Part shown: positions 3,564 to 41,604 of the stretch, piece by piece | How the letters are laid out: every line of letters starts with the position of its first letter | How positions within the stretch are numbered: the first letter of the stretch is position 1 | Assembly (NCBI GenBank): GCA_964646765.1 | Contig: CAZYIA010000002.1 | Coordinates: forward strand, 208,735 to 272,734 | Length of the DNA stretch: 64,000 nucleotides | From: an uncultured Candidatus Saccharibacteria bacterium | GTDB taxonomy: Bacteria > Patescibacteriota > Minisyncoccia > Phycocordibacterales > UBA9973 | Reading direction: 5' to 3' | Position numbers and translations under genes: made by a program | Notes under the pieces: generated by a model | Databases searched by the model: none | Told to the model about the DNA's origin: nothing | Seen by the model: the letters and a program-made list of their open reading frames with translations, nothing else

Positions 3564-3920
3564 ATGTCGAACAACAAAGGTTTTACGCTCATCGAACTCC
3601 TCGTCGTTATCGCAATTATCGGAATCCTCTCAGCAGTTGTGCTCACTTCCCTCAACAGTGCACGTACAAAGGCTAAGACTGCTGCTTTCAAGTCTGAAGT
3701 AACTAGTATCCTCCCAAGTCTTATCACAGCTTGTGATACTGATGGTGCTACTCTTACAACTGCAGCTGCACAGACTGGTAGTACTCACGGTGCAGGAACA
3801 AGTGTTTCAAACACTTGTGGTACTACAGACACTTTCAGCGTTACCTACACGGCAACGAACGGTGCTGACTCTGCTGCTGACGTTGCAGTTTGTACCGAAT
3901 CTGGCTGTACATTCAGCTAA
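3564..3920 (+). CDS. Type IV (major) pilin with prepilin-type N-terminal methylation motif
   Basis: 'MSNNKG|FTLIELLVVIAIIGIL' is a class III signal (cleavage after Gly, Glu at +5). 118 aa with a C-terminal Cys pair. Own promoter and terminator. Confidence 0.8.
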   Translation: MSNNKGFTLIELLVVIAIIGILSAVVLTSLNSARTKAKTAAFKSEVTSILPSLITACDTDGATLTTAAAQTGSTHGAGTSVSNTCGTTDTFSVTYTATNGADSAADVAVCTESGCTFS

Positions 3921-3939
3921 ACCAAAACACTGGTTAACA

Positions 3940-3967
3940 AAAACCCCCTCTGGGGGTTTTTGTTTTT
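3940..3967 (+). terminator. Rho-independent terminator after the pilin gene
   Basis: 'aaaaccccctctgggggtttttgttttt'. Confidence 0.55.
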
Positions 3968-3994
3968 GCACCAAGAACTCTAGTAGGAGGGGAA

Positions 3995-4822: not shown

Positions 4823-4825
4823 TCT

Positions 4826-5662
4826 ATGAAATTATTTACACGCCGCGTCTCTCGTACTGTATATCAAGGATTAACTTCACTTGAGCTTATTGTTGTTCTC
4901 GCGATCTTCGGTATTCTTTCTGGTATCACCATGTTTAATTACGGGTCATTTTCTGCTGGAGTGAACCTTCAAAACACCACCCAACAAGTGGCTCTTCGTA
5001 TTCAGCAAGCACAAACAGAAGCTATTTCTGGTCGCTATCCTCATTTTGCTGATTCACAGCAATCAATTTATCCAGGATGGAAACCAGCCTTTGGTACCTA
5101 TTTTGCTACGGCCTACCCAACAACCTTCGCCTACTTTTTTGATCAGAATGGTGAGAACGCAGGAGGTTTTTCACGCGATGGCATTATGAGTGGTGATCCA
5201 CCACTTTCCAACGATCCAAGTAGTGTTCTTGCCGGAACCGAAACCTGCGGCACTCAGAATAAAGAATGTCTCGATGTTATTTCTATTAAGAGTGGGGAAC
5301 ACATTGTTGGTATTTGTAATGACGATATTACTGCGCAAAATAGTTGTCACGATAATGTTTCCATTTCATTTCAGCGCCCATTTCCACCGGCTAAAATTAT
5401 TGTAGAACCTCACGCTGATGGCACATACGACAGCTCAATCCAACCAGTAGAACGAGTGACTATTCTTATTCTTGGTAAAAATTCCCAAGGGCTTCGTGGT
5501 GTTGTGGTAACTCGCTTAGGCCAAATTTATACTCGAACTCTTACTGCCCAGGATGCTTCCACTATTCATCTCACACAAACTACTCTAGGGTTGAGTGGAA
5601 TTGATTTTTCATTTTTTAATCAACAGCCACAGGGAGGTGGCTGCCAGGGTATTCAATGTTAA
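4826..5662 (+). CDS. Pilin-like protein (minor pilin) with prepilin N-terminus
   Basis: '...G|LTSLELIVVLAIFGILSGI' hydrophobic N-terminal helix with Glu at +5. 278 aa. Confidence 0.6.
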   Translation: MKLFTRRVSRTVYQGLTSLELIVVLAIFGILSGITMFNYGSFSAGVNLQNTTQQVALRIQQAQTEAISGRYPHFADSQQSIYPGWKPAFGTYFATAYPTTFAYFFDQNGENAGGFSRDGIMSGDPPLSNDPSSVLAGTETCGTQNKECLDVISIKSGEHIVGICNDDITAQNSCHDNVSISFQRPFPPAKIIVEPHADGTYDSSIQPVERVTILILGKNSQGLRGVVVTRLGQIYTRTLTAQDASTIHLTQTTLGLSGIDFSFFNQQPQGGGCQGIQC

Positions 5663-26603: not shown

Positions 26604-26677
26604 TGCGGGATCGTCTAATGGTAGGACACATGACTCTGAATCATGTTATCTAGGTTCGAGTCCTAGTCCCGCAGCCA
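26604..26677 (+). tRNA. tRNA-Gln(CUG) with encoded CCA
   Basis: U1:A72 acceptor 'TGCGGGA'/'TCCCGCA'. Discriminator G plus CCA, as in E. coli tRNA-Gln. Anticodon stem 'CATGA/TCATG' with loop 'CTCTGAA'. T-arm 'CTAGGTTCGAGTCCTAG'. Confidence 0.75.
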
Positions 26678-26991: not shown

Positions 26992-29900
26992 ATGTCGTCA
27001 TCAATAACAAACACCGGTGATAATACGCTTTCGTCAAACTTAAAGAGCATTTTGCCTAATTGCGACAAGGTAGACGCTTTGGTTGGATATTTTTACTTTT
27101 CTGGCTTTCGAGATTTGCATAATGAACTAAAAGATAAGCAAATAAGAATTTTGGTTGGAATGGATATTGATAAGAAAATTATTGATAAAGTTTCAACTCT
27201 AAAAGATCTAAACCTAGACTCATATACAACAGACACAAAAACATCTTCTCGCTCTATTGCAAAAGATGATTACATTGAGAACTTTTCAAGAATTTTTAAT
27301 GATACAGATTTCTTTGATAACGACGAATCACAGAAAGCTTTTGAAATATTTTTAGATAAAATTAAAGACGGTAGTTTGCAAATCAAGAAGACTGCACAAG
27401 CAAACCATTCAAAGTTCTATATTCTTCACAACAAGCCCGAGTTTTCAACTAATGGAATTACTCCAGGAATTGTAATTGAAGGTTCAAGCAACCTAACTTT
27501 TTCAGGATTGAAGGGTCAAGGAGAACACAATCGTATTTTAATGGAAAAACATTACTACGAGGATGATGTTAAGCGGTTTGAATCAGTATGGAATGACCCT
27601 GACAACATAGTTATCACTGATCTTGATTCAGCAGAAACTTTTATAAAAGAAGTAAAGGAAAAGATTTGGCTTTATGCTTTGCCAAATCCGCTTTTGATGT
27701 ATTACAAAGTACTAAATGAATACTTTGCTGTTACTGAAATAGAAAACATGAAGACCCCGAAACACATTACTGGGGGTAAATTTTCTGATCTTAAATATCA
27801 AAAAGATGCCATCAATCTAGGTATTGATCGTATTAAGAAGTTCGGAGGTGTAATCATTGCCGATGTGGTAGGTCTAGGAAAAAGTATTATTGCTTCTGCG
27901 ATTGCTCACAACCTTGGTTATAAAACAATCATTATTGCACCACCTCACCTCGAGAATCAGTGGAAAGATTACATGTCTGAATTTGATTTTAAAGGTTTTG
28001 TATATTCAACTGGGAAAATAGAAGAAGCATTACAACGACACGGCGATGACGAAGGTAAGCTTTTGGTTATATTAGACGAAGCCCACAAGCATCGAAATGA
28101 GGATACTGACAATTACAAAGTTCTGCACAGACTCTGTGCAGGTAACTATGTAATGGCTCTATCTGCAACTCCTTTCAATAACGATCCAAAAGATATTTAC
28201 GCCTTGATTAAGCTCTTTAGTACCCCAGGACAATCAACCATTAGAACAGTGGAAAACCTAAGTATGTCTTTCCACATGCTCTTTAAACGATATAAAGCTG
28301 TTCGTCGGGATCTACGAAAGAGTACAAAAGATGAATCAGATAACTCTGAAATTAAAGTCGAACTACATTCAATTGCAGATGAATTAAGAAAAATGATTGA
28401 GCCGTTGATTATTCGAAGATCACGACTTGATTTGGAAGAGATCGAAGAATACAAAGAAGACTTGAAAGCTCAAGGTGTTGCTTTTGCAAAAGTGAAGGAT
28501 CCACAACTATTGGAGTACGATCTTGGTGATATGTTTGACCTCTATGTAAGTACACTCGAAAAAATTGCTCCAGAAGATAGAAGCACTAGTTTTATTGGTG
28601 CGCGATACAAGCCTGCTTCTTACATTAATCAGGGTTCAAAATTCCTTGAAAAATTGATTGAGCAAGATGACGAAGATGGAATGTCTGCGGAAGAAAAACT
28701 ACAGCGTATTCAACAAGGACAAAGCAACCTTGCTCGATTCATGCGAAGACTCCTTGTTCGACGCTTTGAAAGTTCTGTTGGAGCATTCAAGTTGTCATTG
28801 AAAAATATGATTACTTCTTCTGAAGCAATGCTTGATTGGTATGAGAATCGCCAGGAAGTTCCTATATTTAAAAAAGGTGTGTTGCCAGACGCGGAATATC
28901 TCAGTGAACTTGATGAAAAAGAATTAGAAGAAACCCTAAACAGACTTGAAGACAAGGGTCTTATTAGAATTCCATTAAGTGAATTACAACCTCAGTTTGG
29001 AGATCATTTAAGACACGATATTGCTCTTCTAAAAGAGATTGATTCAGATTGGTCTGATAAAACTAGTGATCCAAAGTTTGAATTCTTTAAACAAAAAATT
29101 ACTCAATCTTTAACAGAAAATCCAAACAGAAAAATTGTTGTATTTACAGAGTTCTCCGACACCGCAAACTATGTATTCCAAAAATTACAAAAAGACGGAT
29201 TTAATCGTGTATTTAAATACAGTTCAGAAGATGCTTCTGATGAAAATAAGAAAATAATCAGATCAAACTTTGATGCTGGACTTGAAGAAGCAAAACAGTC
29301 TAATGACTTCGATATCATTATTGCCACTGATGCAATTTCCGAAGGGTTCAACTTGCATAGAGCAGGAGCAATCATAAACTACGATATTCCATATAACCCA
29401 ACTCGTGTTATTCAACGTGTTGGTCGTATCAACCGTATCAACAGAAAAGTTTTTGATGAATTGTATATTTATAACTTCTTCCCAACACTTACCGGAGAGC
29501 TTGAAACTCGAACAAAAGCAATCTCAACTCTTAAAATGGATTTGATCCATACACTTTTGGGCGAGGACACAAAAACTCTTACATCAGAAGAAGACTTAAA
29601 GAACTACTTTGCAAAGCAATACAAAGAAGAAAATAGTAAAAATGAAAGTTTATCTTGGGACGCTCCATACCGAAATACATGGCTCAAGATCAAGGATGAT
29701 AAAAAGATCATGGAACAAATATCACGAATACCGCATCGTTCAAGAATTGCTCGAAATACCAAAGATATTAACGGTGTAGTTGCATTTGCAAAGAAGAGCG
29801 GAAACTATGTATTTGCATTTGGAAATACTCCTGAAACAGTTCAAATTGTATCTCCACAAGTTGCACTTCCTTTGTTTAATCAAGTTGTAGATTCAGAGGA

Positions 29901-30285
29901 GTCACTGCAAACAACAGTAAACTTCGATCCAATTTATAAAATGGCTAAAGAGCATATCTTTAAAGACAATACAAAAGCTTCTGTCGATGGTGGTCGAAAG
30001 CAAGATGCACTCAACAGGGTTAAATTGCTTGGTGAATTGTATCCTCAAGCAAAAGACCTTTGCTTAGATATCATTAGAGCAATCAAGGATCTTGATGCTC
30101 TTCCAAATGGAGTACTTAAAGAGATTGTAGAACTTCGTATTGATAAAGCTAATCCAGAAAATGCATACTTAGAACTCAAAGAACTTATCCCAAGTAAATA
30201 TCTTGAAAGTATCTTTGAAACAGCTGATAGAGCAAATGATGATGGAAAGCTCATTGTTCTCTCTGAAGAATTAATCGCACTATGA
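26992..30285 (+). CDS. PLD-family nuclease (single HKD) fused to SNF2-family helicase
   Basis: N-terminus: 'NHSKFYILHN...GIVIEGSSNLT' (HxK...GSxN). SNF2 motifs: I 'ADVVGLGKSIIA', Ia 'TIIIAPPHLENQW', II 'ILDEAHKHRN', III 'LSATPFNNDPKDIYALIKLF', V/VI 'DAISEGFNLHRAGAIINYDIPYNPTRVIQRVGRINR'. 1097 aa. Confidence 0.75.
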   Translation: MSSSITNTGDNTLSSNLKSILPNCDKVDALVGYFYFSGFRDLHNELKDKQIRILVGMDIDKKIIDKVSTLKDLNLDSYTTDTKTSSRSIAKDDYIENFSRIFNDTDFFDNDESQKAFEIFLDKIKDGSLQIKKTAQANHSKFYILHNKPEFSTNGITPGIVIEGSSNLTFSGLKGQGEHNRILMEKHYYEDDVKRFESVWNDPDNIVITDLDSAETFIKEVKEKIWLYALPNPLLMYYKVLNEYFAVTEIENMKTPKHITGGKFSDLKYQKDAINLGIDRIKKFGGVIIADVVGLGKSIIASAIAHNLGYKTIIIAPPHLENQWKDYMSEFDFKGFVYSTGKIEEALQRHGDDEGKLLVILDEAHKHRNEDTDNYKVLHRLCAGNYVMALSATPFNNDPKDIYALIKLFSTPGQSTIRTVENLSMSFHMLFKRYKAVRRDLRKSTKDESDNSEIKVELHSIADELRKMIEPLIIRRSRLDLEEIEEYKEDLKAQGVAFAKVKDPQLLEYDLGDMFDLYVSTLEKIAPEDRSTSFIGARYKPASYINQGSKFLEKLIEQDDEDGMSAEEKLQRIQQGQSNLARFMRRLLVRRFESSVGAFKLSLKNMITSSEAMLDWYENRQEVPIFKKGVLPDAEYLSELDEKELEETLNRLEDKGLIRIPLSELQPQFGDHLRHDIALLKEIDSDWSDKTSDPKFEFFKQKITQSLTENPNRKIVVFTEFSDTANYVFQKLQKDGFNRVFKYSSEDASDENKKIIRSNFDAGLEEAKQSNDFDIIIATDAISEGFNLHRAGAIINYDIPYNPTRVIQRVGRINRINRKVFDELYIYNFFPTLTGELETRTKAISTLKMDLIHTLLGEDTKTLTSEEDLKNYFAKQYKEENSKNESLSWDAPYRNTWLKIKDDKKIMEQISRIPHRSRIARNTKDINGVVAFAKKSGNYVFAFGNTPETVQIVSPQVALPLFNQVVDSEESLQTTVNFDPIYKMAKEHIFKDNTKASVDGGRKQDALNRVKLLGELYPQAKDLCLDIIRAIKDLDALPNGVLKEIVELRIDKANPENAYLELKELIPSKYLESIFETADRANDDGKLIVLSEELIAL

Positions 30286-33200
30286 AATTAAACGAAAAAT
30301 ACAATCCAGAATCTTTTGTTAATTTTATTCAAGATTTTCTTCCTGAAGATTTTAATCTCAAAGAAGAGGATATTGTAATTAACAAAGATAGATATAAAGA
30401 GATAACCAGAGCAAAGATTTTGGGTTTTTGTGAATCGCTAGATTTACATGTTTTGGAAATGGATCATACCCACGATAAAGATCCACGAGTGGCAATCGCT
30501 ACTGATGCTTTCAAAATTCTTGCTGATCACTGGATCCACAGAGCTTTAGTTATATTTAAAAACAACGATTCTGATAACTATCGTTTTTCATACCTTACAA
30601 TATCTCTCGATCTTAATGATAAGAATAAAGTTGTTAAAAAGTACTCAAACGCACGACGTTATTCTTTTTATTTAGGAACTAACGCAAAAGTTAAAACTCC
30701 AGAACAACAACTTATTAAAAAAGGGAAAATTAAGGATGTAGATGATCTGCTTAATCGGTTTTCTGTTGAAGTCGTAAATAAGCAATTCTACCTAGAAGTT
30801 GCAAAATTCTTTGATGAATTGGTTTCAATAGAAGATCAAAACCTAATTCTTCCTGGAGTATCCGAAACAGATATAAACACCCGAAAAAGCTTTGCTGTTC
30901 GACTTATTGGTCGCGCGATGTTTTGCTGGTTTTTGAAGCAGAAAAAATCAGATAATGGACAACTTGTTCCTGACGAAATCTTATCTTCAAAAGTTGTATC
31001 TGATAATTACTATCACAATACTCTTGAGCCTCTTTTCTTTGGAGTTCTGAACACAAGTATTGATGCCCGTGATATACGAACTGAACTCTTTGATAAAGTG
31101 CCATATTTAAACGGAGGGTTGTTTAATCCTCAAACAGACGACTACTACGAACTTGATCGTGGTACTTTTGCTTCAAAATACATCAATACTCTCAAGATAA
31201 GCGACAAGTGGTTTAAGGAATTCTTTGAACTTCTAGAAACATATAATTTCACCATTGATGAAAACACCGTATTTGATCAAGAACTTTCCGTTGATCCTGA
31301 AATGCTTGGTCGTATTTTTGAAAATCTTTTGGCTGAAATTAACCCTGAAACAGGAAGTAGTGAACGAAAACGAACAGGAAGTTTTTATACTCCAAGACAG
31401 ATTGTTGAGTATATGGTGGACAAGTCTCTAGTTGAGTATTTTAAGACAAAGACAAGTATTGAAGATAAAAAACTAAATGCGGTAGTCAGTTACGATCTTA
31501 CTGATGATACAGAGTATCCATTAAACCAAGAAGAGAAAAAACAGATAATCGATGCTATTGAATCATTAAAAATTCTTGATCCTGCTTGTGGGTCAGGTGC
31601 ATATCCAATCGGTGCACTTCAGAAAATTGTATACATTCTGCAACAAGTAGATCCTGATTGTACAATGTGGCTCGATAAGAAGCTCCAGGGTGTACCAGAT
31701 TTGTACAAACAAAAGATAATTAATGAGGTAAAACAAAATCCGTTTGATTACACCAGAAAACTTGATGTCATAAAGAACTCAATTTTCGGGGTAGATATTC
31801 AACCAATCGCTGTAGATGTATCTCGCTTGCGATGTTTTTTGACGTTAGTTGTTGAATCTGAAATTGACGATAATAAACCAAATCGAGGTATTGAACCACT
31901 TCCAAACTTGGACTTTAAATTCGTATGTGCAAATACACTTATCCCTCTACCTAAATCAACTGCAACAAATCTTTTTGATGATCATTCAGGTATTACTGAG
32001 CTATCAAAAATAATGTCAGAATATTTCTCTTGTAATAGTCAAAGAAAAAATGAACTTAGAATTAAGTTCACTAATGCACAAAAAGAAATTCTTGAAAAAA
32101 CCGTATCAGCCTTTGGTAAAAATACTGGCGAGCTTACTTTAAAACTTACAACATGGAATCCATTTAGTAACCACTCAAATTCCTGGTTTGATCCAGAATG
32201 GATGTTTGGATTACAAGAAAAATTCAGCATTGTTATAGGTAATCCTCCATACGTTGATTCAGAAACAATGGTAAAAGATGATCCGGCAATGCGTGAGTTT
32301 TATTCATCTTTATATAAAACTGCAAGTGGTAACTGGGATCTTTTCGTTATTTTTATTGAACAAGGAATCAATCTTTTAAACGATAAAGGTAGTTTATCGT
32401 TTATAGTTCCAAATAAATTGATCGGGGCAAAATATTCAGAGTCAATACGATCTCTAATGATGTCAAAAAATATTCGATATATAAGAGACTATTCAAGTGT
32501 AAAAGTATTTAAAGAAGCAAGTGTTTATCCTGTTGTGTTTCAGGTTTCTAATTACACTCAAGATAAATCTGAGGTTATTTTAACAAAGATGAAGGATATT
32601 GAAGACGCGGAGTTGATAAACAAAGTCCCACATTCCTTGTTTTATGATGATGTATATTGGGATCGATATTTTATAGAACCCAAATTTTTAGAATTAATAG
32701 TAAAAATTACAAATAATAAAAAATTAGTAGAGATTAATAATCAGATTCTAGGATCAGCGACGGTTAATGAAGCATATCAACTCAAGGAGCTTGTGCATGA
32801 GATAGAAGACATCGAGGGGAATAATTTCAAGAAACTAATAAATTCAGGAACAATTGATCCTTATACTTCCTTGTGGGGTGTAAAAAAGACACAATATATT
32901 AAATCATCTTATAATAAACCTGTAGTTAATAATGATGTCTTACTAAAACTTCTGCCAAAAAGATTCACTCAAGCCGATTCTAGCAAATTAATTATTGCTG
33001 GGATGTCTAAAAGACTTGAGGTTTTTCTTGATAAAGGAGAATACATTGCTGGAAAATCCACTACAATTATTCTTGATAATCAAAAAATGGACATTCGTTA
33101 TTTGCTTGCTATTTTGAATTCAAAATTAATTTCTTATTGGTATCAGATTTACTTCAAATCACTTTCACTTGCAGGCGGATATCTTAGAATCAGTAATAAT

Positions 33201-33386
33201 GAAATTAAAAAAATCCCAATCGCAATTGCTGATAGTAGTTCAGAGATAACTATATTAGATTTGGTTGATCAAATTATGGATGGTAAATCTGCAAATGTAT
33301 CTGATTTGGAATCAAAATTAGAAGAATTAATAATGGATGTGTATAAATTAAACAACGAAGAAAAAGAAATCGTGCGGAATGCTTAA
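30282..33386 (+). CDS. Large gamma-class N6-adenine DNA methyltransferase (Eco57I/PglX/DrmMI-like) with C-terminal specificity region
   Basis: Motif I 'ILDPACGSGAYPIGAL' precedes motif IV 'VIGNPPYVD'. 1034 aa. ATGA overlap with the upstream helicase gene (translational coupling). Confidence 0.8.
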   Translation: MKLNEKYNPESFVNFIQDFLPEDFNLKEEDIVINKDRYKEITRAKILGFCESLDLHVLEMDHTHDKDPRVAIATDAFKILADHWIHRALVIFKNNDSDNYRFSYLTISLDLNDKNKVVKKYSNARRYSFYLGTNAKVKTPEQQLIKKGKIKDVDDLLNRFSVEVVNKQFYLEVAKFFDELVSIEDQNLILPGVSETDINTRKSFAVRLIGRAMFCWFLKQKKSDNGQLVPDEILSSKVVSDNYYHNTLEPLFFGVLNTSIDARDIRTELFDKVPYLNGGLFNPQTDDYYELDRGTFASKYINTLKISDKWFKEFFELLETYNFTIDENTVFDQELSVDPEMLGRIFENLLAEINPETGSSERKRTGSFYTPRQIVEYMVDKSLVEYFKTKTSIEDKKLNAVVSYDLTDDTEYPLNQEEKKQIIDAIESLKILDPACGSGAYPIGALQKIVYILQQVDPDCTMWLDKKLQGVPDLYKQKIINEVKQNPFDYTRKLDVIKNSIFGVDIQPIAVDVSRLRCFLTLVVESEIDDNKPNRGIEPLPNLDFKFVCANTLIPLPKSTATNLFDDHSGITELSKIMSEYFSCNSQRKNELRIKFTNAQKEILEKTVSAFGKNTGELTLKLTTWNPFSNHSNSWFDPEWMFGLQEKFSIVIGNPPYVDSETMVKDDPAMREFYSSLYKTASGNWDLFVIFIEQGINLLNDKGSLSFIVPNKLIGAKYSESIRSLMMSKNIRYIRDYSSVKVFKEASVYPVVFQVSNYTQDKSEVILTKMKDIEDAELINKVPHSLFYDDVYWDRYFIEPKFLELIVKITNNKKLVEINNQILGSATVNEAYQLKELVHEIEDIEGNNFKKLINSGTIDPYTSLWGVKKTQYIKSSYNKPVVNNDVLLKLLPKRFTQADSSKLIIAGMSKRLEVFLDKGEYIAGKSTTIILDNQKMDIRYLLAILNSKLISYWYQIYFKSLSLAGGYLRISNNEIKKIPIAIADSSSEITILDLVDQIMDGKSANVSDLESKLEELIMDVYKLNNEEKEIVRNA

Positions 33387-34720
33387 TTAAAAGATATTAT
33401 TTTATTTTTCAAGATAATCTTACTCTTAAAACAAGTTAGTAATTCTCGTTTCTCCTCAATTAAACCATCTTTCAAAATAAATTTGGCGTAGTCTCTAATG
33501 TCTATGTCTTTTATTTGTATTTGTTGCTTTGTGTTTAACACAAATTGATTAAAGCGTTTGATTCTTTCAACTTCGTATTTAATCTTTTCTTTCATTCCTA
33601 TCTCGTTAATATTTACCTGATCAATCAACTTTTCAAATTGCTGTATTAGATCTACTTCATTTATATACCCACACTTACAGTTCTTATCCTTAGATCTCGT
33701 ACACCCATAATAGATATGCCTATTTACTGATCCGTCTTTAAGTTTTTTAAACTTTTCATCTGCACATATTCCAGAACCACAAAGCCCACATGTCATCATT
33801 TTTGTAAAAGCAAATTCTTTTGGCTCTTGGGTTCGCAACACTTGGCTTTTTGTTTGTTCTTGGACTAGATCAAAAAGTTCTTTATTGATTATCGGCTCGT
33901 GTTTTCCAGTATAGAAATTTCCACTTTTCCGTGGATACTCAAAAACTCCATAATAGAATGGATTTTGAAGTATGAGATAAATATTGCTAAGGGTAAGACC
34001 TTTGTTGCCACTACGAGTTTTGAAATTAAGATCGAACTTAAGCCAGTGATAAAGTTTTCTTCCTGACCATTTTTCGTATGCCACTTTTTCAAACATTTGT
34101 TTAACTATCGGTGCTCGTTCTGGGTCTATAACGACTTCACACTTTTTATCCATTCGTTTTTCATTGAGATACCCAACAACAGCAGGACCCGGGCGAAGCC
34201 CCATCTCACATCTTGTTCGTAAACCTCGTTTTACATTGATACTTTTATTATCGTTCTCGAGTTTTGCTTGAGAACATAGAATCATCAAAAGAAACTTCTC
34301 ATTTGGAGAATTTTTGAAGTGTTGCCCATATGTTCTGATTTCAAGAAGTTTTGTTTCATCCATAAGATCAACAACAGATCCAAGGTCACCGGCATTTCTT
34401 GATAGACGATCTGGTGCCCAGGTGAGTATACCGTTATACCTACCACGCCTTATGTCCTCTAATACCTCTCTAAATACTGGTCGTTGACCAGATTCTTTAG
34501 CCGAGTGAGATTCACGTCTAATATCAACAACCGTTAAACTATCACGGTCGGCTATAGCAAGCATTTCCTTAACCTGTGATTCGATAGACAGGGCTTGTTT
34601 TTCGTCTGATTCGGTTGATTTTCGAGCATATAGGACATACCGAATCTTGGTTTTTGGTACCTCTGTCCTTACTCCTAAATTGCTTATATATTGCGTCTCC
34701 ATATTATATTGATGACGCAA
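33383..34720 (-). CDS. Large serine recombinase (integrase)
   Basis: Resolvase catalytic domain 'YVLYARKSTESDEKQALSIESQ'. Recombinase domain. Zn-ribbon 'CGLCGSGICADEKF...YYGCTRSKDKNCKCGY'. C-terminal coiled-coil. 445 aa. Confidence 0.85.
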   Translation of the reverse strand: MRHQYNMETQYISNLGVRTEVPKTKIRYVLYARKSTESDEKQALSIESQVKEMLAIADRDSLTVVDIRRESHSAKESGQRPVFREVLEDIRRGRYNGILTWAPDRLSRNAGDLGSVVDLMDETKLLEIRTYGQHFKNSPNEKFLLMILCSQAKLENDNKSINVKRGLRTRCEMGLRPGPAVVGYLNEKRMDKKCEVVIDPERAPIVKQMFEKVAYEKWSGRKLYHWLKFDLNFKTRSGNKGLTLSNIYLILQNPFYYGVFEYPRKSGNFYTGKHEPIINKELFDLVQEQTKSQVLRTQEPKEFAFTKMMTCGLCGSGICADEKFKKLKDGSVNRHIYYGCTRSKDKNCKCGYINEVDLIQQFEKLIDQVNINEIGMKEKIKYEVERIKRFNQFVLNTKQQIQIKDIDIRDYAKFILKDGLIEEKRELLTCFKSKIILKNKIISFN

Positions 34721-34774
34721 TTTGAGCGTTTTGCTAAGTCTATGCAGAACTAGCGAAATATTGCATACTCGCGA

Positions 34775-36277
34775 CTACTTCACTGACTCAACATCAACAT
34801 AATCAGAATAATAAATTGTGCTGTCGTCATCACCACCTAGCCAAAACATTATTATGGTACCTTCATTTGAATGCTTATCGAGAGTTGCATTTATGAGTAG
34901 TGAAAATGCGTCTGCAAGATCATCGTGTTTTTCAGCCCCAAATCCAACCAGTTGTTCAATTAAATCTTCACACCCTTGTCTGGGGAACTTTATAATCCCT
35001 GATTTTATAGCAGTTGAAGTAAGAGAAAGTCTAGTTCTTTTATCTCCTTTCGGCTTAATTGCTTCTGCGGTAATTCCATGAAGCTCAAGCATTTGAGGTA
35101 GTGCTTCTTGATATGCAACACTCTCAACAAAAAGAGTGTCGCTAGATCTTGGCATATTAGTTGCTTTAAAGTTTTTCATTAAATCCACTTGTGCCGGGAA
35201 ATTTAGTTTTTGCTGAATTGGGTTTGGGAGGATGTATATACGCATTTTTTCTCTTCTGCTATACACATGAGCAGAAACAATAGTTGTAAAATCCGCTGAA
35301 TCTTTTGCTGAAATGGCAAGGTCTACTCCTGCATAAGTACCTCGGTATCCCATATGCCTGGTTCCAGGCAGATCATCATAATATTGAATCCATTCTCTAT
35401 AAATAACTTGATCATCACTCGGAATAATACGAAGTAAATATTCCCGTTGCCATGATATTTCACTAGCAACTTTTAGTTTTTCTTCTTCAATATCTTTTGT
35501 ATCTTTGTATTTTCCAGGCCACAAGCATAGATCATTTTTATCTAAGAGTGGGTATTCTTTAAAAATACCTTTTGCTTTGCCTTTTGAAATTTCGTCCTTG
35601 ATACGCATTAAGAGTGAATCCTCGTGGAGCAAGTTTCCGACAATGATTAGTCGAGTATTTCTATCTCCAGCAGGTACAATCTCACCACGGAGCCAATGAT
35701 ACGTCTTATCTCTCCCTTCACGAGTTTTAGCAGACTGCACGTCTTCCACATCATCACAAATGATTAAGTCTGGTCGATGTTCGTTATGGCGAATACCACG
35801 AATACTTTGTTCAGTAGAAGCTACGGTAATTCTAGCTCCGTGCTTCTTAAAAACGAGAGAGAACGAACCCCACTCGTCGCTTTCTTCTTGAAATGGTCCA
35901 AGATCTTTTTTAAGAACATCGTTACCCTCAAGTTCAGTACGAATATTCATCATATGTTGCTTTGCCTGTGCTCTAGTCTGACAGAAAATAATACAAAATT
36001 TCTTTTGTTGTTTTCCGAGGATTGCCCAAATAGGATATGCAGTCGTTACCATAGTAGATTTTCCAGATCCACGAAATGCCACCACATATAGGTTTTCAGT
36101 AGTGCTTTTTTCGAGATTATGGATAATCTCTTTTTGAAAGTCTGCCGTTTCGTACTTCACATAGTGTGCATAGTAGAAGTGGAAAAAGTATAGGAAGCTA
36201 TCTTTTGTAATTGATGTTCGCACTGATCTATCTTTAATCATAGTATTCACCAGTGCTTTTGGAATTATTTTAGTCAT
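34775..36277 (-). CDS. Phage terminase large subunit
   Basis: Walker A 'VVAFRGSGKSTM'. Walker B 'LIICDDVED'. C-terminal RNaseH-like nuclease region with acidic residues. 500 aa. Confidence 0.8.
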   Translation of the reverse strand: MTKIIPKALVNTMIKDRSVRTSITKDSFLYFFHFYYAHYVKYETADFQKEIIHNLEKSTTENLYVVAFRGSGKSTMVTTAYPIWAILGKQQKKFCIIFCQTRAQAKQHMMNIRTELEGNDVLKKDLGPFQEESDEWGSFSLVFKKHGARITVASTEQSIRGIRHNEHRPDLIICDDVEDVQSAKTREGRDKTYHWLRGEIVPAGDRNTRLIIVGNLLHEDSLLMRIKDEISKGKAKGIFKEYPLLDKNDLCLWPGKYKDTKDIEEEKLKVASEISWQREYLLRIIPSDDQVIYREWIQYYDDLPGTRHMGYRGTYAGVDLAISAKDSADFTTIVSAHVYSRREKMRIYILPNPIQQKLNFPAQVDLMKNFKATNMPRSSDTLFVESVAYQEALPQMLELHGITAEAIKPKGDKRTRLSLTSTAIKSGIIKFPRQGCEDLIEQLVGFGAEKHDDLADAFSLLINATLDKHSNEGTIIMFWLGGDDDSTIYYSDYVDVESVK

Positions 36278-36279
36278 AA

Positions 36280-36687
36280 TTATTTTTTACGATTAATGTT
36301 TTTAATGGATTTCGACTTGGTAATTTTTGCGAGTTTAAGTGCCTGCTTTACAATTTTCGCTTGTGACGGTGTTAGTTCCTCGTTATCATCTTTAGTAGTA
36401 ATCTCAAGTTTGTTTTTGTAATTATCATTTCGATGACGAAGCCAAAAACTAATTGCAGGATAGTTTTTCTCTTTAATAAGAGTAAGTAGTTGGCTTTCGC
36501 TCATGTCATTTACCAAAGTAACACCTTCAGAAAGTGCACCATCCATTTTCTTGAGAAATTCTTTATCATCTTTTCTCCATCGATATACACTGTTGCGAGA
36601 CAATCCTGTTTTCTCACACGCTACCTGAACGATTGGCACTTTTCGCAGTTCATCAAGGAACTGGTCTTGAAATTTATTCTTTTTCAT
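36280..36687 (-). CDS. Putative terminase small subunit / HTH DNA-binding protein
   Basis: 135 aa. HTH 'VACEKTGLSRNSVYRWRKDDKEF'. Basic C-terminus. Sits immediately upstream of TerL and overlaps the preceding gene's end. Confidence 0.45.
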   Translation of the reverse strand: MKKNKFQDQFLDELRKVPIVQVACEKTGLSRNSVYRWRKDDKEFLKKMDGALSEGVTLVNDMSESQLLTLIKEKNYPAISFWLRHRNDNYKNKLEITTKDDNEELTPSQAKIVKQALKLAKITKSKSIKNINRKK

Positions 36688-37951
36688 AGAAGTTCTTGAT
36701 TACCTGTGCTTTGTGACCAGTTAATTTTTCATAGCGACGAATCGCCAAATCGCAAAACACAGGTTCTATTTCTAGGGAATAGACCTTTCGACCCAATTGT
36801 TCCGCACAGATCATAGTGCTAGCAGATCCAGAAAAGGCATCAAAAATGATGTCTCCTGGCTTAGTGCAACGCATAATAAACTTATGGTGTAATTCAGGAT
36901 TTTTACTCGTTGCATGTTCCATTTGATTTGAAGGTAGTCGTTTTGTAGCCCAAATGTTTGAAACATCTTCTAGAAGCTGATTACCAGTTCCATAATCTTT
37001 GTTTTGAACTTCGTTTAGATTTCTTACGAGATCAGAAATATATGGAGATCCTTTTGTGCCGTACACGCAATACTCAAGACACTTGTTGAACGCCACGGTA
37101 GGTGTCGGCGATGAGTTATTTTTAACCCAAACATTAAGTCTTCGGTTCTTAACTCCGTTTTCCATATAGAGTGTTTGAAAAACCCACACCCAGGCTTCAT
37201 CACACCAGAAAGCGACATGTACATCTTTAGTAGATATGGTTAGTGAAGATTTTAGAACCTTGCGAATAAATTCTTTATATTCTTCGGGTGATTGATTGTC
37301 GTCAAACGTACCTCCGTAGTTGGATTTATTTCCCACACCTTTATCGTATGAGAGCCCTATATTAAAGGGTGGGTCATTGTAGATAGCAGTGGCTTTATCG
37401 TTTCCGAACAGTTTAGTAACAGCATTAACATCAGTTGAACTAGCACACAACAACTTATGACTACCCATGATTATAAGATCACCTGGTTTAGTCTGTGGTG
37501 TTTTTATTTTCTTTAACTCTTTATCGACATCGAATTTGTCATCTTTGGTATCCTTTTCTTCGTCCCAAAACTTAACCAATTCTTTTTCGTTAAATCCAGC
37601 AAATTGCAAAAGCTCTAGGTCAAAAGACTTAAGCTTTTCAAAATCCCATTCTCCATCATTTATATTACTTTCAATAGCAATCTTGCGACGTTCTTCGTCA
37701 GATAATTTACGATCAGGTATCAACACGTTTACTTGCTTGATACCAAGTTGTATCAAAGCGGTTTTTCTTTGATTGCCTGAAATAATAGTGTTATCTGTAT
37801 CAATGACAATCACACTGTGAAAACCACTTTGAATGATTTTCTCCTTTAATTTCTCCATAGCGACCCTTGAGATTTTTCTTGGATTTTCTTTCCAAGGGAG
37901 TAAGTCTTTGACCTCTCGAACTCCTGTTTTCCATAAAGGTTTTTTATTCAT
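36674..37951 (-). CDS. ParB-like nuclease domain fused to beta-class N4/N6 DNA methyltransferase
   Basis: ParB/Srx box 'IISGNQRKTALIQLGIKQVNVLI'. MTase motif IV 'DPPFNIG' precedes motif I 'IIFDAFSGSASTMICAEQLGRK'. 425 aa. Confidence 0.75.
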   Translation of the reverse strand: MNKKPLWKTGVREVKDLLPWKENPRKISRVAMEKLKEKIIQSGFHSVIVIDTDNTIISGNQRKTALIQLGIKQVNVLIPDRKLSDEERRKIAIESNINDGEWDFEKLKSFDLELLQFAGFNEKELVKFWDEEKDTKDDKFDVDKELKKIKTPQTKPGDLIIMGSHKLLCASSTDVNAVTKLFGNDKATAIYNDPPFNIGLSYDKGVGNKSNYGGTFDDNQSPEEYKEFIRKVLKSSLTISTKDVHVAFWCDEAWVWVFQTLYMENGVKNRRLNVWVKNNSSPTPTVAFNKCLEYCVYGTKGSPYISDLVRNLNEVQNKDYGTGNQLLEDVSNIWATKRLPSNQMEHATSKNPELHHKFIMRCTKPGDIIFDAFSGSASTMICAEQLGRKVYSLEIEPVFCDLAIRRYEKLTGHKAQVIKNFYEKE

Positions 37952-38125
37952 AGAGTTTTTATTTAATTACTTATAAATTTGTAGATGACTAATCTACTAA
38001 CTCCATGAAATCAAAAAGGTACATAGGCATGTAATTGGCATAAAATTGAGTAGCATAAAGAAAAAACGCCTATTTAAAGGCGATTTTTCAAAGTTATCCA
38101 CTCAACTTGGTGTCAACTTAGGAAT

Positions 38126-38749
38126 TTATTCTTTCTCTATATGTATTTTAGGATTGATACGATACCCAGAACCTTTCTTTCCTTGAATAAGTTTTGTTTT
38201 CTTTGGAAGTCTTAGGGTGTTGATCACATAGTCATTAAAAGTCTGAACTATTTTTGCTACGGCTGACGATGAAAGCATGGATCCAAGTTCTTTTGTTTTT
38301 ACATATGTGCCACGATCAAGAAGTATTTCAAGTAATTGTTTTCTTTTTCCATTTTCAGTGAGATCGTATGAGAAAAGTTTACCTCCCAAATGTCTATCGA
38401 GTGATCCATTTCTTGTGTCATAAATAATTACATTGCTGTCTTGGCTCGAAGATAAAAGTCGCTTGTGGTTTTTATTTAACTCCTGGAGTTCTTCTAGAAT
38501 GTCGTATTCAACAGGACGACGGTATACGATTTCAGGGTATTCTACTGGTTCAAAAAGTTTTACTTGTTCTCGAACGCGATTCATTTGTTCAATGATCGGC
38601 TGAGCAATTTTTCTCACATTTTCAATCATTTCTGCATGTCTTTTACCAATCTCTTGGAATTGAGAAATCTGCCCCTCACTCAAAGCAGGAGGGTGTATCT
38701 TTGCTACCAGTTCACCGACGGTCATTGGTTTTTTCTGGTCATTTTCCAT
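38126..38749 (-). CDS. Hypothetical phage-island protein (early gene, divergent from the repressor)
   Basis: 207 aa. Basic C-terminus 'LPKKTKLIQGKKGSGYRINPK' may bind DNA. No firm motif. Confidence 0.35.
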   Translation of the reverse strand: MENDQKKPMTVGELVAKIHPPALSEGQISQFQEIGKRHAEMIENVRKIAQPIIEQMNRVREQVKLFEPVEYPEIVYRRPVEYDILEELQELNKNHKRLLSSSQDSNVIIYDTRNGSLDRHLGGKLFSYDLTENGKRKQLLEILLDRGTYVKTKELGSMLSSSAVAKIVQTFNDYVINTLRLPKKTKLIQGKKGSGYRINPKIHIEKE

Positions 38750-38807
38750 AAAGACATCATAGCAAATACTTGCTTTTTTGTATAGAGTAATTTATACTAT
38801 TTATACC

Positions 38808-39425
38808 ATGACAAATAACCTTAGTGACAAAGATAAAAAAGCGTTTGCCCTTATCCGTAACAAGATTGTTCATTATGGCAAAAGCCCTACACTTAGTGAG
38901 ATTAATAAGGTTACAGGTGGAGCTTCTCCACGATCTGCAAGCCTTGTAATTAATCGACTAATTGACGCAGGACTAATAAAAAAGATTGGACGACAGCTTA
39001 TCCTTACTGGATCACAAACAACAGCTTCAATAAGCACTGTTGATGTTCCTTTGGTAGGTGCTGTGACATGCGGTACCCCTGTTCTTGCCGAAGAAAATAT
39101 TCAAGCCTTGATCCCTGTATCAACAGGTCTAGCTAAAAAGGGTTCAAAATATTTTCTTTTGCGTGCAATTGGAGACTCAATGAATCTTGCAGGAATTAAT
39201 AGTGGTGATCTGCTTTTGATTCGACAGCAAGACACAGCAGAAGATAATGATAAAGTTGTTGCTCTTATAAATGACGAAGCAACCGTCAAAGTATTCAAGA
39301 AAGCGGATGGTGCTGTTGTACTTCAACCGAAGTCAACGAATAAAAACCATAAGCCGATTATATTAACAGATAACTGTATCATCCAAGGGGTAGTTGTTGC
39401 GGTACTTCCAGGTGATCTATATTAA
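38808..39425 (+). CDS. LexA/CI-like repressor (HTH + S24 peptidase domain)
   Basis: N-terminal wHTH 'SPTLSEINKVTGGASPRSASLVINRLIDAGLIKK'. S24 Ser 'GDSMNLAGINSGDLLLIRQQ'. Lys 'VVALINDEATVKVFKK'. ATG at 38808 is preferred over the track's TTG at 38778. Confidence 0.7.
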   Translation: MTNNLSDKDKKAFALIRNKIVHYGKSPTLSEINKVTGGASPRSASLVINRLIDAGLIKKIGRQLILTGSQTTASISTVDVPLVGAVTCGTPVLAEENIQALIPVSTGLAKKGSKYFLLRAIGDSMNLAGINSGDLLLIRQQDTAEDNDKVVALINDEATVKVFKKADGAVVLQPKSTNKNHKPIILTDNCIIQGVVVAVLPGDLY

Positions 39426-39431
39426 ATTTTT

Positions 39432-39659
39432 ATGGCAAAAAATATTCATACTGTTTATAACTCAGATCGTGGAATGTGGGAAAACAAAAAAGAGGGTTCT
39501 GATAAACCACTTTCTTCTCATCACACAAAAGATAATGCTCTTGATAGAGCAGAAAATATTGCTGAAAAAGCAAAGGTCGAACATTTTATTCACGGCAAGG
39601 ACGGAAAAATCCAGGAGCGTAATAGTTATGGGAATGATCCGTTTCCTCCTAGAGGCTAA
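39432..39659 (+). CDS. DUF2188-family small protein
   Basis: 75 aa. 'MAKNIHTVYNSDRGMWENKKEGSDKPLSSHHTKDNALDRAENIAEKAKVEHFIHGKDGKIQERNSYGNDPFPPRG' matches the DUF2188 pattern (HV.P...GW........HGRDG.I...DSYGNDP.PP.G). Confidence 0.55.
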   Translation: MAKNIHTVYNSDRGMWENKKEGSDKPLSSHHTKDNALDRAENIAEKAKVEHFIHGKDGKIQERNSYGNDPFPPRG

Positions 39660-39665
39660 AAGACT

Positions 39666-40589
39666 ATGGCTATTCCACTTTCTCAACTGACTACATGGTC
39701 AAACCAAGGTGCTACTGTTTCAGCAAAAGCAACTCATGAATCTATTCGAACAGCACTGACACATGACCAGTCGCCACTTAAAGATCGTATCAGTAATGGT
39801 TCGGTAAAAATCTATCTCCAAGGATCGTATAAAAACGATACAAATATTCGAGCAGATAGTGATGTGGATGTAGTTGTCGAATTAACAACTACATTTGGTC
39901 ATAATGCACACGAACTTCCTTATGATCAGAAAAATGCTCATGATCAGGCATATGGTAGTGCTGTTTATGATTGGCAAGATCTACGCAGAGATGTCATTTC
40001 TGCTCTGACTAAATATTATGGTTTACTATCTGTTGATACAAGTGGTAATAAATCAATTAAACTCAAACCCTCTTCAGGAAGACTAAAGGCTGACATTGTT
40101 CCTGTTATAAATTATCGTAAATATGATTATTTCTATGGTACCAATAGTCATAATGCAGAAGAGGGTGTGAAATTTTATCATCGCACAACAAATCGTGGAA
40201 TCATAAATTATCCAGAGCACCACTATCAAAACGGAGTTAATAAAAATTCAGATATTCGTACAGGCGGGCGCTTTAAGCCAACAGTACGAATTTTCAAGAA
40301 TATGAGAAACCATCTTGTTGATACAGGCAAACTTGCCGATGGTATAGCACCGTCATATTTCTTACAGTCATTAATTTACAATGTCCCTGATGAACATTTT
40401 ACCGGTGATCATTCGACAACCGTACACGCAGTATTAAAACACCTCTGGTCTGCATTACCTCTTGGTCAATGTATGTGTCAAAACCATTTTCATGAGTTAT
40501 TCGGTGAAAGTGAGGAGCAATGGAATCAAGATGATGCAGTAAAAACTATCAGTGCTTTTGTAGAGCTTTGGGATAATTGGAATCAATAA
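39666..40589 (+). CDS. Pol-beta-superfamily nucleotidyltransferase, SMODS/CD-NTase-like (candidate CBASS cyclase)
   Basis: 'LQGSYKNDTNIRADSDVDVVVEL' (GS...DxD) plus third acidic residue 'RLKADIVPV'. 307 aa. Operonic with a 2-TM effector-like gene. Confidence 0.6.
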   Translation: MAIPLSQLTTWSNQGATVSAKATHESIRTALTHDQSPLKDRISNGSVKIYLQGSYKNDTNIRADSDVDVVVELTTTFGHNAHELPYDQKNAHDQAYGSAVYDWQDLRRDVISALTKYYGLLSVDTSGNKSIKLKPSSGRLKADIVPVINYRKYDYFYGTNSHNAEEGVKFYHRTTNRGIINYPEHHYQNGVNKNSDIRTGGRFKPTVRIFKNMRNHLVDTGKLADGIAPSYFLQSLIYNVPDEHFTGDHSTTVHAVLKHLWSALPLGQCMCQNHFHELFGESEEQWNQDDAVKTISAFVELWDNWNQ

Positions 40590-40591
40590 TT

Positions 40592-41191
40592 ATGCAAAAT
40601 ATACACCCATATTCGATAAATTCGGAAGAACACAAGTATGTATCTCTCTACCTTGCAATAATATCAATATTGCTTGCATGGGGACTATATTTGTTTTCAA
40701 AAAATATCTTTTTCTTACCATGGTGGATAGAAGCTCCTTCGGTAATTGGATTTTATGGAATTTTACATAAGTGGTTCGAAACTAAGCTGTGGAGAAATAA
40801 TTTTATTCGTAAAATTGCTAGTATAAAAACTCCTATCATAGACGGAAATTGGTCTGGAACCATAACATCTCATTCAAATCATGCCAACGGTCCAATACAG
40901 ATAAAGAAATTTTGTATTAAACAAACATGGACTCATTTACTTATCTATCTAGAAACAGAGACATCAGAATCTTTCAGTTTTGAAGCGTCAATGAATGTTG
41001 ATGAGTTCGGGACGGCTCGGATACATTATCAATACAGAAACAAACCAAAAGATAATGCACCTGAAAGTATGCATATACATGAAGGATCAGCATCTGCAAA
41101 GTTAGAAGATGAAGGAGCACTTCAAACAGAATATTACTCAGGTAGAGATCGTAATAATACAGGCTCTTTTGAAGTTAAAAAGTTACAGTAA
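40592..41191 (+). CDS. Two-TM + beta-strand-rich protein (Cap15 / S-2TMbeta-like candidate CBASS effector)
   Basis: ATG at 40592, 2 nt after the NTase stop (track's TTG at 40577 overlaps). Two N-terminal TM helices ('VSLYLAIISILLAWGLYLF', 'WWIEAPSVIGFYGILHKWF'). C-terminal ~130 aa with an alternating beta-like pattern. Confidence 0.5.
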   Translation: MQNIHPYSINSEEHKYVSLYLAIISILLAWGLYLFSKNIFFLPWWIEAPSVIGFYGILHKWFETKLWRNNFIRKIASIKTPIIDGNWSGTITSHSNHANGPIQIKKFCIKQTWTHLLIYLETETSESFSFEASMNVDEFGTARIHYQYRNKPKDNAPESMHIHEGSASAKLEDEGALQTEYYSGRDRNNTGSFEVKKLQ

Positions 41192-41215
41192 TCTGTAACT
41201 TTTATACTCAAACCC

Positions 41216-41407
41216 GTGTCACTTTTGTCACTTTTTATGAATCAAGAAGATAAAAGAAATCCTAAAAATTGGACTAAAGAAGAAACCGATAGAGTGGTGG
41301 CAGTATTTCAGTGGTTATTAGATCAGGATAGAAAACAAAATCCAGATAGGTATAAACTACCAAAAGGAGCAATTTTAGATAAAGACGGAAATCAGGTAAT
41401 TTTATAG
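41216..41407 (+). CDS. Hypothetical small protein
   Basis: 63-aa ORF with a hydrophilic, charged composition. No motif. Confidence 0.25.
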   Translation: MSLLSLFMNQEDKRNPKNWTKEETDRVVAVFQWLLDQDRKQNPDRYKLPKGAILDKDGNQVIL

Positions 41408-41604
41408 GTGCTCAAAGACCGTCGGAATGATAAAATAAAGATACTCAAAATGTCCTTGCAGGGCTTGACCGACCACGGTTCTGGCTCAAGGACGCCAGCT
41501 TTGAACGGAAAACTGGCAGTAGGGGAGATGACTCTGAATTTCTATAGCGGTGGACGAGAGAAGCGTACCCGCGGTCCTAGTCGCTCAATTCTATCCCACT
41601 ATTT

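Follow-up and report, generated by a model that had tools for sequence, protein, structure and literature searches.

The window analysed here, a stretch of 64,000 nucleotides from an uncultured bacterium (GenBank contig CAZYIA010000002.1, positions 208,735 to 272,734), carries on its plus strand two adjacent genes that by homology encode a cyclic oligonucleotide-based antiphage signalling system (CBASS): cdnE (39666-40589), which starts at an ATG and encodes a protein of 307 amino acids (aa), and cap15 (40592-41191), which encodes one of 199 aa. The stop codon of cdnE (TAA, 40587-40589) is followed by two nucleotides (tt) and then by the ATG of cap15 at 40592; the listed start of the second open reading frame (ORF) is a TTG at 40577, and it is the ATG that yields the 199-aa protein. 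These two proteins and the 2-nt gap between their genes had been described correctly in an original prediction made from the letters of the DNA, which took the pair for a minimal two-gene operon. The pair is instead the distal half of a four-gene operon, in which genes for a LexA-type repressor, a DUF2188 protein, CdnE and Cap15 follow one another on the same strand with gaps of 6, 6 and 2 nt, and this operon lies in one arm of a mobile element of about 8.1 kb. As we read it, the locus is very probably a CBASS of type I-B that acts by abortive infection and forms the cargo of a small phage-derived integrative element in a member of the Paceibacteria, within the Candidate Phyla Radiation (CPR).

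CdnE, the cyclase of the pair, is by homology a clade-E cGAS/DncV-like nucleotidyltransferase (CD-NTase) with an intact active site. The PADLOC cyclase model PDLC00788 matches it with E=3.2e-106 (residues 1-305 on positions 1-297 of 297), and more than 20 additional PADLOC cyclase models match it as well. A PDB sequence search gave five matches, every one a clade-E CD-NTase: the best is the CdnE of Rhodothermus marinus (Rm-CdnE, 6e0k; E=2.5e-65, full length), with which the window protein shares 46% identity (133 of 288 aligned positions), followed by the CdnE enzymes of Legionella, Elizabethkingia, Enterococcus and Cecembia. The catalytic motifs G53-S54, D64-S-D66-V-D68 and K141-A-D143-IVPV satisfy the Pol-beta nucleotidyltransferase (NTase) pattern; all three had been picked out in the original prediction, which was right to see a CD-NTase in them and wrong only about their spacing, GS-x9-DSDVD (equivalent to GS-x11-DVD) and not GS-x11-DSDVD. 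In an alignment of 119 homologues at 46-98% identity, G53, S54, D66, D68 and the lid residue Asn181 are invariant and D143 is present in 117, and the precomputed annotations of CdnE and of all its relatives include PF26305 CD_NTase_C. AbiEii/DUF1814 toxins, MNT antitoxins and aminoglycoside NTases, to which such a protein might have aligned instead, were tried as candidates and none was matched in Pfam, PADLOC, NCBIfam or the PDB search.

By homology, the downstream protein crosses the membrane twice and carries at its C-terminus a beta-barrel that binds cyclic dinucleotides; it is predicted to be activated by the dinucleotide, and the Cap15 effector that had been suspected from two transmembrane (TM) helices and a beta-rich C-terminal domain is recovered in both sequence and fold. 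Both Cap15 domains of Pfam match above their cut-offs, Cap15_CD_rec with E=1.5e-27 (positions 2-122 of 122 of the model) and Cap15_TM with E=1.6e-8 (35.6 bits, cut-off 28.2); PADLOC 2TM effector models match with E=1.6e-56, and the PDB sequence search finds the crystallised Cap15 of Yersinia aleksiciae (7n34) with E=1.4e-9. Hydropathy gives a strong hydrophobic segment at residues 17-35 and a weaker one at about 41-62. In an AlphaFold2 model built from 30 homologues (pLDDT 86.5), long N-terminal helices (11-38 and 44-64) precede eight beta strands (85-197), the soluble domain being a barrel and not an all-helical fold. The top Foldseek match of this model in the PDB is again 7n34 (E=1.6e-6, TM-score 0.88, rmsd 1.8 A over the barrel); further matches are far weaker and fall on generic small beta-barrels, for example retinoic-acid-binding proteins. 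The Yersinia protein (PDB 7N34/7N35) has the same architecture, a pair of TM helices at the N-terminus and an eight-stranded beta-barrel, with 22% identity in the barrel.

The two genes travel together, as had been expected of a genuine system. cdnE and cap15 are neighbours in 10 of the 10 genome loci found with CdnE, including Flavobacteriales and Calditrichales metagenome-assembled genomes (MAGs) at 41% CdnE identity, and they are also adjacent in each additional locus inspected, at 81, 69, 63 and 51% CdnE identity; over all loci with this adjacency, CdnE identity runs from 98% down to 41%. By its gene content the pair is a standard type I-B CBASS, that is, a CD-NTase with a 2TM effector. 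Neither Cap2/Cap3 nor HORMA/TRIP13, type IV or other CBASS accessory genes were detected by Pfam or PADLOC among the neighbouring genes, and the surrounding genes are the LexA-like gene, the DUF2188 gene, a small ORF (orf63) and a DUF817 gene. Such a pair is recognised directly by PADLOC models, with matches that chance would not give, and by itself adds little. Compared with orthologues, cdnE has a dN/dS of 0.03-0.05 and cap15 one of 0.04-0.06, at dS of 0.25-0.74, which argues that both are under strong purifying selection; the exception is a nearly identical cdnE copy in one comparison locus (L005), with dN/dS of 0.135. Across the four genes of the operon, most comparisons give a dN/dS of 0.02-0.06, at dS values that reach 0.9. 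These values bear on the idea that the system is an inactive relic on a decaying prophage, an idea to which the lack of capsid, tail, lysis and replication genes in the element lends some colour. Besides the selection on the four genes, every ORF is intact, the catalytic residues are kept, and the compact backbone of the element is retained in at least nine independent contigs, with identity of the large terminase subunit (TerL) down to 56%; a decayed relic is hardly conceivable on this evidence and we reject it.

The operon opens with the repressor gene (38808-39425, plus strand), whose 205-aa product is a LexA/CI-type protein of the S24 family, predicted to be self-cleaving. Its start is the ATG at 38808, with a TTG further upstream at 38778, and the JGI gene call also has 205 aa. 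Pfam Peptidase_S24 matches with E=1.8e-26 and NCBIfam TIGR00498 (lexA) with 130.9 bits against a cut-off of 110.95; a candidate cleavage site (C88-G89), Ser124 in GDSM and Lys161 in VKV are present, and the DNA-binding Pfam domain stays under its threshold (20.7 against 23.7). Between this gene and orf207, the first gene of the opposite arm, lies a divergent control region of 58 bp (38750-38807). It holds a candidate promoter, TTGCTT (38770-38775) and TATACT (38793-38798) separated by 17 nt, and a direct repeat, TTATAC-N4-TTATAC, that abuts the repressor ATG and is a candidate operator. The region is nearly invariant in six elements that are otherwise about 87-90% identical, and the TTGCnn-17 nt-TATACT arrangement with its TTATAC repeat is kept in loci L031 and L033, at 56-58% repressor identity, where the repeat ends 1-2 nt before the ATG. 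We infer from this that 38750-38807 is a promoter with an overlapping operator, which would give a near-leaderless mRNA. The gene layout and the conserved non-coding sequence suggest that cdnE and cap15 would be co-transcribed from it with the repressor and DUF2188 genes; co-transcription with an autoproteolytic repressor would make expression autoregulated, and expression of the CBASS would probably rise when RecA bound to single-stranded DNA, as a result of DNA damage or phage replication, triggers self-cleavage of the repressor.

The arrangement of the four genes is not confined to close relatives of the window. The complete cassette is kept in the complete CPR genome CP064989.1 (L031), at 56, 76, 69 and 37% identity for repressor, DUF2188, CdnE and Cap15, and in L033/L034, at 58, 83, 81 and 39%, where the opposite arm consists of unrelated genes (Dcm, Vsr). 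As a separate observation, Cap15 diverges much faster than its partner proteins in these loci, being 37-39% identical to the window protein while CdnE is 69-81% and DUF2188 76-83% identical.

The second gene of the operon (39432-39659, plus strand), 6 nt from both the repressor gene and cdnE, encodes a 75-aa DUF2188 protein (Pfam E=6e-19) that matches the PADLOC candidate PDC-S16 with E=5e-28 and has a dN/dS of about 0.05. A DUF2188 gene stands upstream of cdnE in L005, L007, L009, L011, L031 and L033/L034; in L006 (9088-9999) and L008 an unrelated 303-aa ORF without Pfam or PADLOC match takes its place between repressor and cdnE, so that DUF2188 is not obligatory for the cassette. We regard it as a candidate accessory or independent defence gene. 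Operons that combine DUF2188 with nucleotide cyclases, or with CapH/CapP-like pairs of a helix-turn-helix (HTH) protein and a metallopeptidase, have been reported (preprint 10.1101/2022.04.27.489752), and the position of DUF2188 between regulator and cyclase in the window offers a convenient setting for probing an uncharacterised, defence-linked family. JGI labels the protein and its cluster 'non-canonical (house-cleaning) NTP pyrophosphatase', a name that is probably spurious because the support seen for it amounts to a Pfam NTPase_I-T match at E=0.16 and a PDB match at E=0.55.

A protease-controlled repressor upstream of a CBASS has parallels in the systems regulated by CapH/CapP and CapW, in which transcription responds to DNA damage. 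The window differs from CapH/CapP in two respects: (i), it has a single S24 LexA/CI-type self-cleaving repressor and not a pair of HTH protein and Zn-peptidase; (ii), the repressor gene is co-directional with the CBASS genes, whereas capH/capP lie upstream on the opposite strand (10.1101/2022.04.27.489752). A limited literature search found no LexA-type regulator of CBASS, and the presence of one in the same operon provides a testable link of DNA damage and phage replication to CBASS expression. Defence cargo on prophages is also familiar from lambda, where rexAB sits behind cI, and the defence genes of the window are placed in a repressor operon in the same way.

By analogy with characterised relatives, phage infection would activate CdnE, which would then synthesise a cyclic dinucleotide (CDN), most likely 3'3'-cUMP-AMP (cUA). 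The nucleotide would bind the barrel of Cap15, Cap15 would oligomerise and disrupt the membrane, and the cell would die before the phage cycle is completed. The identity of the signal had seemed beyond guessing in the original prediction, which called the pair very diverged; that judgement falls, since CdnE is 46% identical to a solved enzyme with a known product, the 3'3'-cUMP-AMP synthase Rm-CdnE (PDB 6E0K/6E0L). In Rm-CdnE the lid residue Asn166 reads the uracil of the acceptor nucleotide, the N166S change shifting the product from cUA to c-di-AMP, and Cys252 and Glu265 leave space for adenine in the donor pocket; in CdnE enzymes that make di-pyrimidine products, this pocket is closed by an (R/Q)xW motif and a salt bridge to Glu (PMC10442399). 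The two enzymes are alike in the GS, DxD and D catalytic residues, the lid Asn, the donor-pocket Cys and the E-Q-W motif: in a HMMER alignment, Asn181 of the window protein corresponds to N166, C271 to C252, and E284-Q-W286 to E265-Q-W267. The donor pocket keeps the Cys and the Glu, and the (R/Q)xW salt-bridge motif of the di-pyrimidine makers is absent. Cap15, for its part, is reported to sense CDNs that contain uracil, to oligomerise and to disrupt the membrane (PMC10419184). The retention of the Rm-CdnE specificity residues, together with this preference of Cap15, leads us to 3'3'-cyclic UMP-AMP as the most likely product of CdnE, and the near match to Rm-CdnE makes this a concrete biochemical prediction. 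Relative to Rm-CdnE, the window protein has short insertions at three places within its first third (6, 3 and 2 residues) and smaller gaps later. The hosts differ as well, a thermophilic Rhodothermus in one case and a CPR bacterium, with activity and product that are predicted, in the other.

Among characterised systems, the type I-B CBASS of Staphylococcus schleiferi (Ssc-CdnE03 and Cap15) has the same order, a clade-E cyclase and then Cap15, and has been found experimentally to protect staphylococci, aborting infection through membrane disruption in the absence of lysis (PMC10686824). It makes cGAMP and is activated by phage cabRNA (PMC10686824), whereas trigger and product are predictions for the window pair, which in addition sits behind a LexA-type repressor and a DUF2188 gene. 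The logic could also run the other way, as in Panoptes: a nucleotide made constitutively by CdnE would hold the S-2TM-beta effector off, and phage anti-CBASS proteins of the sponge or nuclease kind, by taking the nucleotide away, would release the effector, which would kill the cell. OptE, the Panoptes effector, belongs to the same S-2TM-beta family as Cap15 and is inhibited rather than activated by its ligand (PMC12657218); sequence and fold alone look the same for the two modes, and the divergence of Cap15, much faster than that of CdnE (37-39% against 69-81% identity), can be counted in favour of such inversion. The Panoptes synthase, however, is an mCpol and not a CD-NTase (PMC12657218), while the window has a full-length clade-E CD-NTase; the effector fits the Cap15 models of Pfam and the CBASS-effector models of PADLOC, and the characterised CdnE-Cap15 pairs operate by activation (PMC10686824, PMC10419184). 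Inverted control is for us very improbable here, and activation of Cap15 by the nucleotide is the reading we keep.

Several results nevertheless weigh against the system, signal and regulation proposed here. Pfam SMODS scores 22.8 bits on CdnE with a cut-off of 26.5, and the NCBIfam model NF053871 ('anti-phage nucleotidyltransferase') 296 bits with a cut-off of 350, scores under curated cut-offs from which we conclude that CdnE forms a distinct subfamily; the origin of the NCBIfam name 'DS2_2_antiphage' could not be traced in the literature. The second TM segment of Cap15 is weakly hydrophobic. The prediction of cUA is based on three residue positions, and the staphylococcal CdnE03 that is paired with Cap15 produces cGAMP (PMC10686824), which indicates that Cap15 partners are not always uracil-specific. 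A generic promoter scan did not flag the promoter or operator, site counts in the region being no higher than in shuffled sequence, and the promoter/terminator scan found no terminator downstream of cap15. The first of these points could be turned into an alternative, namely that there is no CBASS at all and a generic Pol-beta NTase happens to lie beside an unrelated small membrane protein: in Pfam, SMODS is sub-threshold and NTP_transf_2 likewise remains just under its cut-off. The full-length match to a PADLOC cyclase model, the finding of CdnE structures only in the PDB, the PF26305 CD_NTase_C annotation, a neighbour that is Cap15 by sequence and by fold and an adjacency that is conserved all speak against it; we consider this alternative refuted and its probability next to nil.

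The CBASS operon is part of a mobile element (33385-41499, about 8.1 kb) that is delimited by blastn as DNA shared with other genomes. L006 and L008 align with the window from 33385/33396 to 41497/41499 at 87-94% identity and L007 and L011 from 34868 to 41238/41249, with no blastn match outside the element bounds in any of the four. The GC content of the element is 0.36-0.39, compared with 0.41-0.45 in the window outside 26-42 kb. Its plus arm comprises the repressor, DUF2188, CdnE, Cap15 and orf63, and its minus arm a serine integrase, TerL, a small terminase subunit (TerS), a ParB-methyltransferase and orf207; the phage packaging genes that the original prediction had noticed on this island are TerL and TerS, joined by an integrase. 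The integrase (33383-34720, minus strand) is a large serine recombinase (Pfam Resolvase, Recombinase and Zn_ribbon_recom; PHROG 95, E=6.5e-60). TerL (34775-36277, minus strand) is apparently intact (PHROG 38, E=2e-76, residues 14-469) and about 25% identical to annotated phage TerL proteins over more than 80% of its length. TerS (36280-36687, minus strand) matches PHROG 4044 (E=2.5e-9) and PHROG 4102, and the following gene (36674-37951, minus strand) encodes an N6/N4 DNA methyltransferase with a ParB-like domain fused to its N-terminus (N6_N4_Mtase, E=9e-28; PHROG 498, E=5e-72; ParB-like PHROGs). orf207 (38126-38749, minus strand) is conserved at 88-95% in sister elements and has no Pfam, PHROG, PADLOC or NCBIfam family; a single-sequence AlphaFold2 model of it (pLDDT 46) was not used. 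orf63 (41216-41407, plus strand), at the right end, is 95% identical in L006, partial in L008 (88% over its first 51 residues), and has no family match in Pfam, PADLOC or NCBIfam.

An integrase, a repressor and packaging genes are the equipment of phage satellites, in particular of PICI-like or capsid-less hitchers. Among the ten genes of the element, Pfam, PHROG and NCBIfam searches found no capsid, portal, tail or lysis gene, and no primase, helicase or rep match appeared, so a replication module of its own, as expected of a satellite, is not recognisable. Satellites of the PICI and P4 types are known for defence hotspots, and the window element resembles them in a swappable cargo slot between conserved backbone; it differs in the backbone itself (serine integrase, TerL, TerS, ParB-methylase and LexA-type repressor), in its CPR host and in the absence of recognisable replication or capsid-remodelling genes. 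No literature on phage satellites in Patescibacteria was found. No direct or inverted att-like repeats were detected at the 33385/41499 junctions in the window, L006 or L008, and no circular or packaged forms were seen as terminal repeats in the whole contigs tested, including those of IMG/VR. A search of JGI metagenomes for an empty integration site, made with a 35-mer identical to the right flank, gave no match, and no synteny was conserved around relatives of the DUF817 gene in that flank, which are at most 72% identical. GenBank phages gave neither a DNA match to the element nor a CdnE match, IMG/VR gave no CdnE relative, and Rfam reported only tRNAs above threshold and nothing at the right end of the element.

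Some further observations concern the ends of the element. Directly 3' of the cap15 stop lies a tandem repeat, GTGTCACTTTTGTCACTTTTT (41192-41236), which is invariant in seven loci. Beyond it, two end modules alternate: one made of orf63 and about 90 bp (the window, L006 and L008), the other of about 120-165 bp (L005, L007, L011, L012 and L015), with a hairpin after it in L011 and two copies of it in L012. An inverted repeat of 7 bp (GTCCTTG...CAAGGAC, 28-nt spacing, 41452-41493) sits only a few bases within the right boundary; L006 and L008 have it too, and it might belong to a recombinase site or form an RNA hairpin. On the other side, the stretch 26992-33386, between tRNA-Gln (26604-26677) and the integrase, encodes two large proteins: a PLD(HKD)-SNF2 helicase of 1097 aa, matched by the PADLOC models DrmD and 'HKD+Snf2', and a protein of 1034 aa that resembles type IIG restriction-methylases (E=3e-80). 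This stretch has the lowest GC of the window (0.30-0.37), its stop codon overlaps that of the integrase, and it is shared with none of the other loci fetched; it is probably a second defence locus.

The backbone of ParB-methylase, TerS, TerL, cargo where present, and serine integrase recurs in other CPR MAGs and in viral contigs, among them IMG/VR contigs (L015-L019) at TerL identities from 86% to 56%, and in its compact form it is kept in the at least nine independent contigs mentioned above. One IMG/VR contig, L015 (3300009666_001272), has a repressor 97% identical to that of the window, and the slot after it (3582-4907) is occupied by an ORF of 122 aa, a TIR protein of the ThsB-like kind and the octameric membrane protein 8xMP, of which the latter two may be a defence pair of TIR signalling and membrane effector. 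L011 and L015 are homologous on both flanks of the exchanged cassette, CBASS in the former and TIR plus membrane protein in the latter, and between TerL and integrase L015 carries a reverse transcriptase, a type III restriction-modification (R-M) system and a PycTM-like protein. The window element, on this comparison of predicted genes, looks like one of a family of compact elements with defence-cargo hotspots. Side findings in the same loci include an RVT_1 reverse transcriptase followed by an unassigned ORF of about 300-317 aa after TerL (L011 2137-5001, L015 9579-12490, L016 2603-5481), a pair that might be a diversity-generating retroelement or a defence reverse transcriptase, and an AbiJ-like gene (AbiJ_NTD3 and Abi_C) directly past TerL in L031 (1162-2085; CP064989.1, Moraniibacteriota), where the window has its integrase. 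In L010 (6148-14389), from a MAG labelled Bacteroidota, CdnE and Cap15 are 85% and 84% identical to those of the window and lie in a different island, with a Gabija-like OLD ATPase and UvrD helicase, genes for an XRE HTH protein and an Mrr nuclease, and a split serine recombinase. Either the pair was transferred across phyla or the contig is mis-binned, its GC of 0.365 resembling that of the CPR loci.

This context raises the question of whom the cassette serves. It might act for the element and not for the cell, as a suicide or addiction module triggered by the SOS response, or as a means for a satellite to fight its helper or competing phages, with a trigger tied to induction of the element itself, for example RNA from its own terS/terL arm. 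cdnE and cap15 do sit in the repressor operon of an element that has TerS, TerL and an integrase and lacks virion genes; the slot is exchangeable, as TIR and 8xMP in L015 illustrate; and in staphylococci, RNA from phage terS/terL sets off a CdnE-Cap15 system (PMC10686824). This explanation largely concerns the beneficiary, however, and not a different mechanism. The pair also occurs outside the terminase backbone, beside Dcm/Vsr in L033/L034, after a type III R-M system in L038 and beside the Gabija-like genes of L010, and no sign of induction, excision or packaging was found in junction repeats, contig ends or GenBank phages. We hold a cassette that works for its carrier to be unlikely, and retain abortive infection in the service of the host cell. 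A wider proposal would join these threads: integrative elements of CPR bacteria, about 8-20 kb long, with a terminase and without a capsid, would form a family not described before and would function as phage satellites. Their repressor operon would be an exchangeable site for defence genes (in some copies CBASS, accompanied by DUF2188 or not; in others TIR and 8xMP), the CBASS would be under SOS/RecA control through a single self-cleaving repressor, a third solution beside CapW and CapH/CapP, and DUF2188 would be a new CBASS-associated accessory protein. Taken as a whole this proposal is tentative, and we would sooner bet against it than for it.

The host is, judging by its proteins, a member of the Paceibacteria within the CPR, as had been surmised: the named closest relatives of the CTP synthase encoded in the window (70-74% identity) are solely Paceibacterota/Patescibacteria. 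At the 90% level CdnE belongs to a cluster of 51 members, which, where named, stem from MAGs of Paceibacterota and Nomurabacteria, and of the 3,215 CdnE homologues many belong to other CPR lineages, one of them to a Nomurabacteria genome of 2016. CBASS in such bacteria, which the original prediction had singled out, is not new: an aquifer defensome survey of 2025 records it in about 5% of Paceibacteria MAGs, with a 'CBASS_I' island in one (PMC12259885), and thus CBASS in the CPR was already catalogued. The less ordinary part is the setting, that is, the linkage to a LexA-type repressor and DUF2188 and the terminase-bearing element with swappable cargo, which on comparative evidence we find moderately interesting. 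In this light, it seems that episymbionts with small genomes gain and swap genes for abortive infection by way of a compact element whose backbone consists of phage packaging and integration functions.

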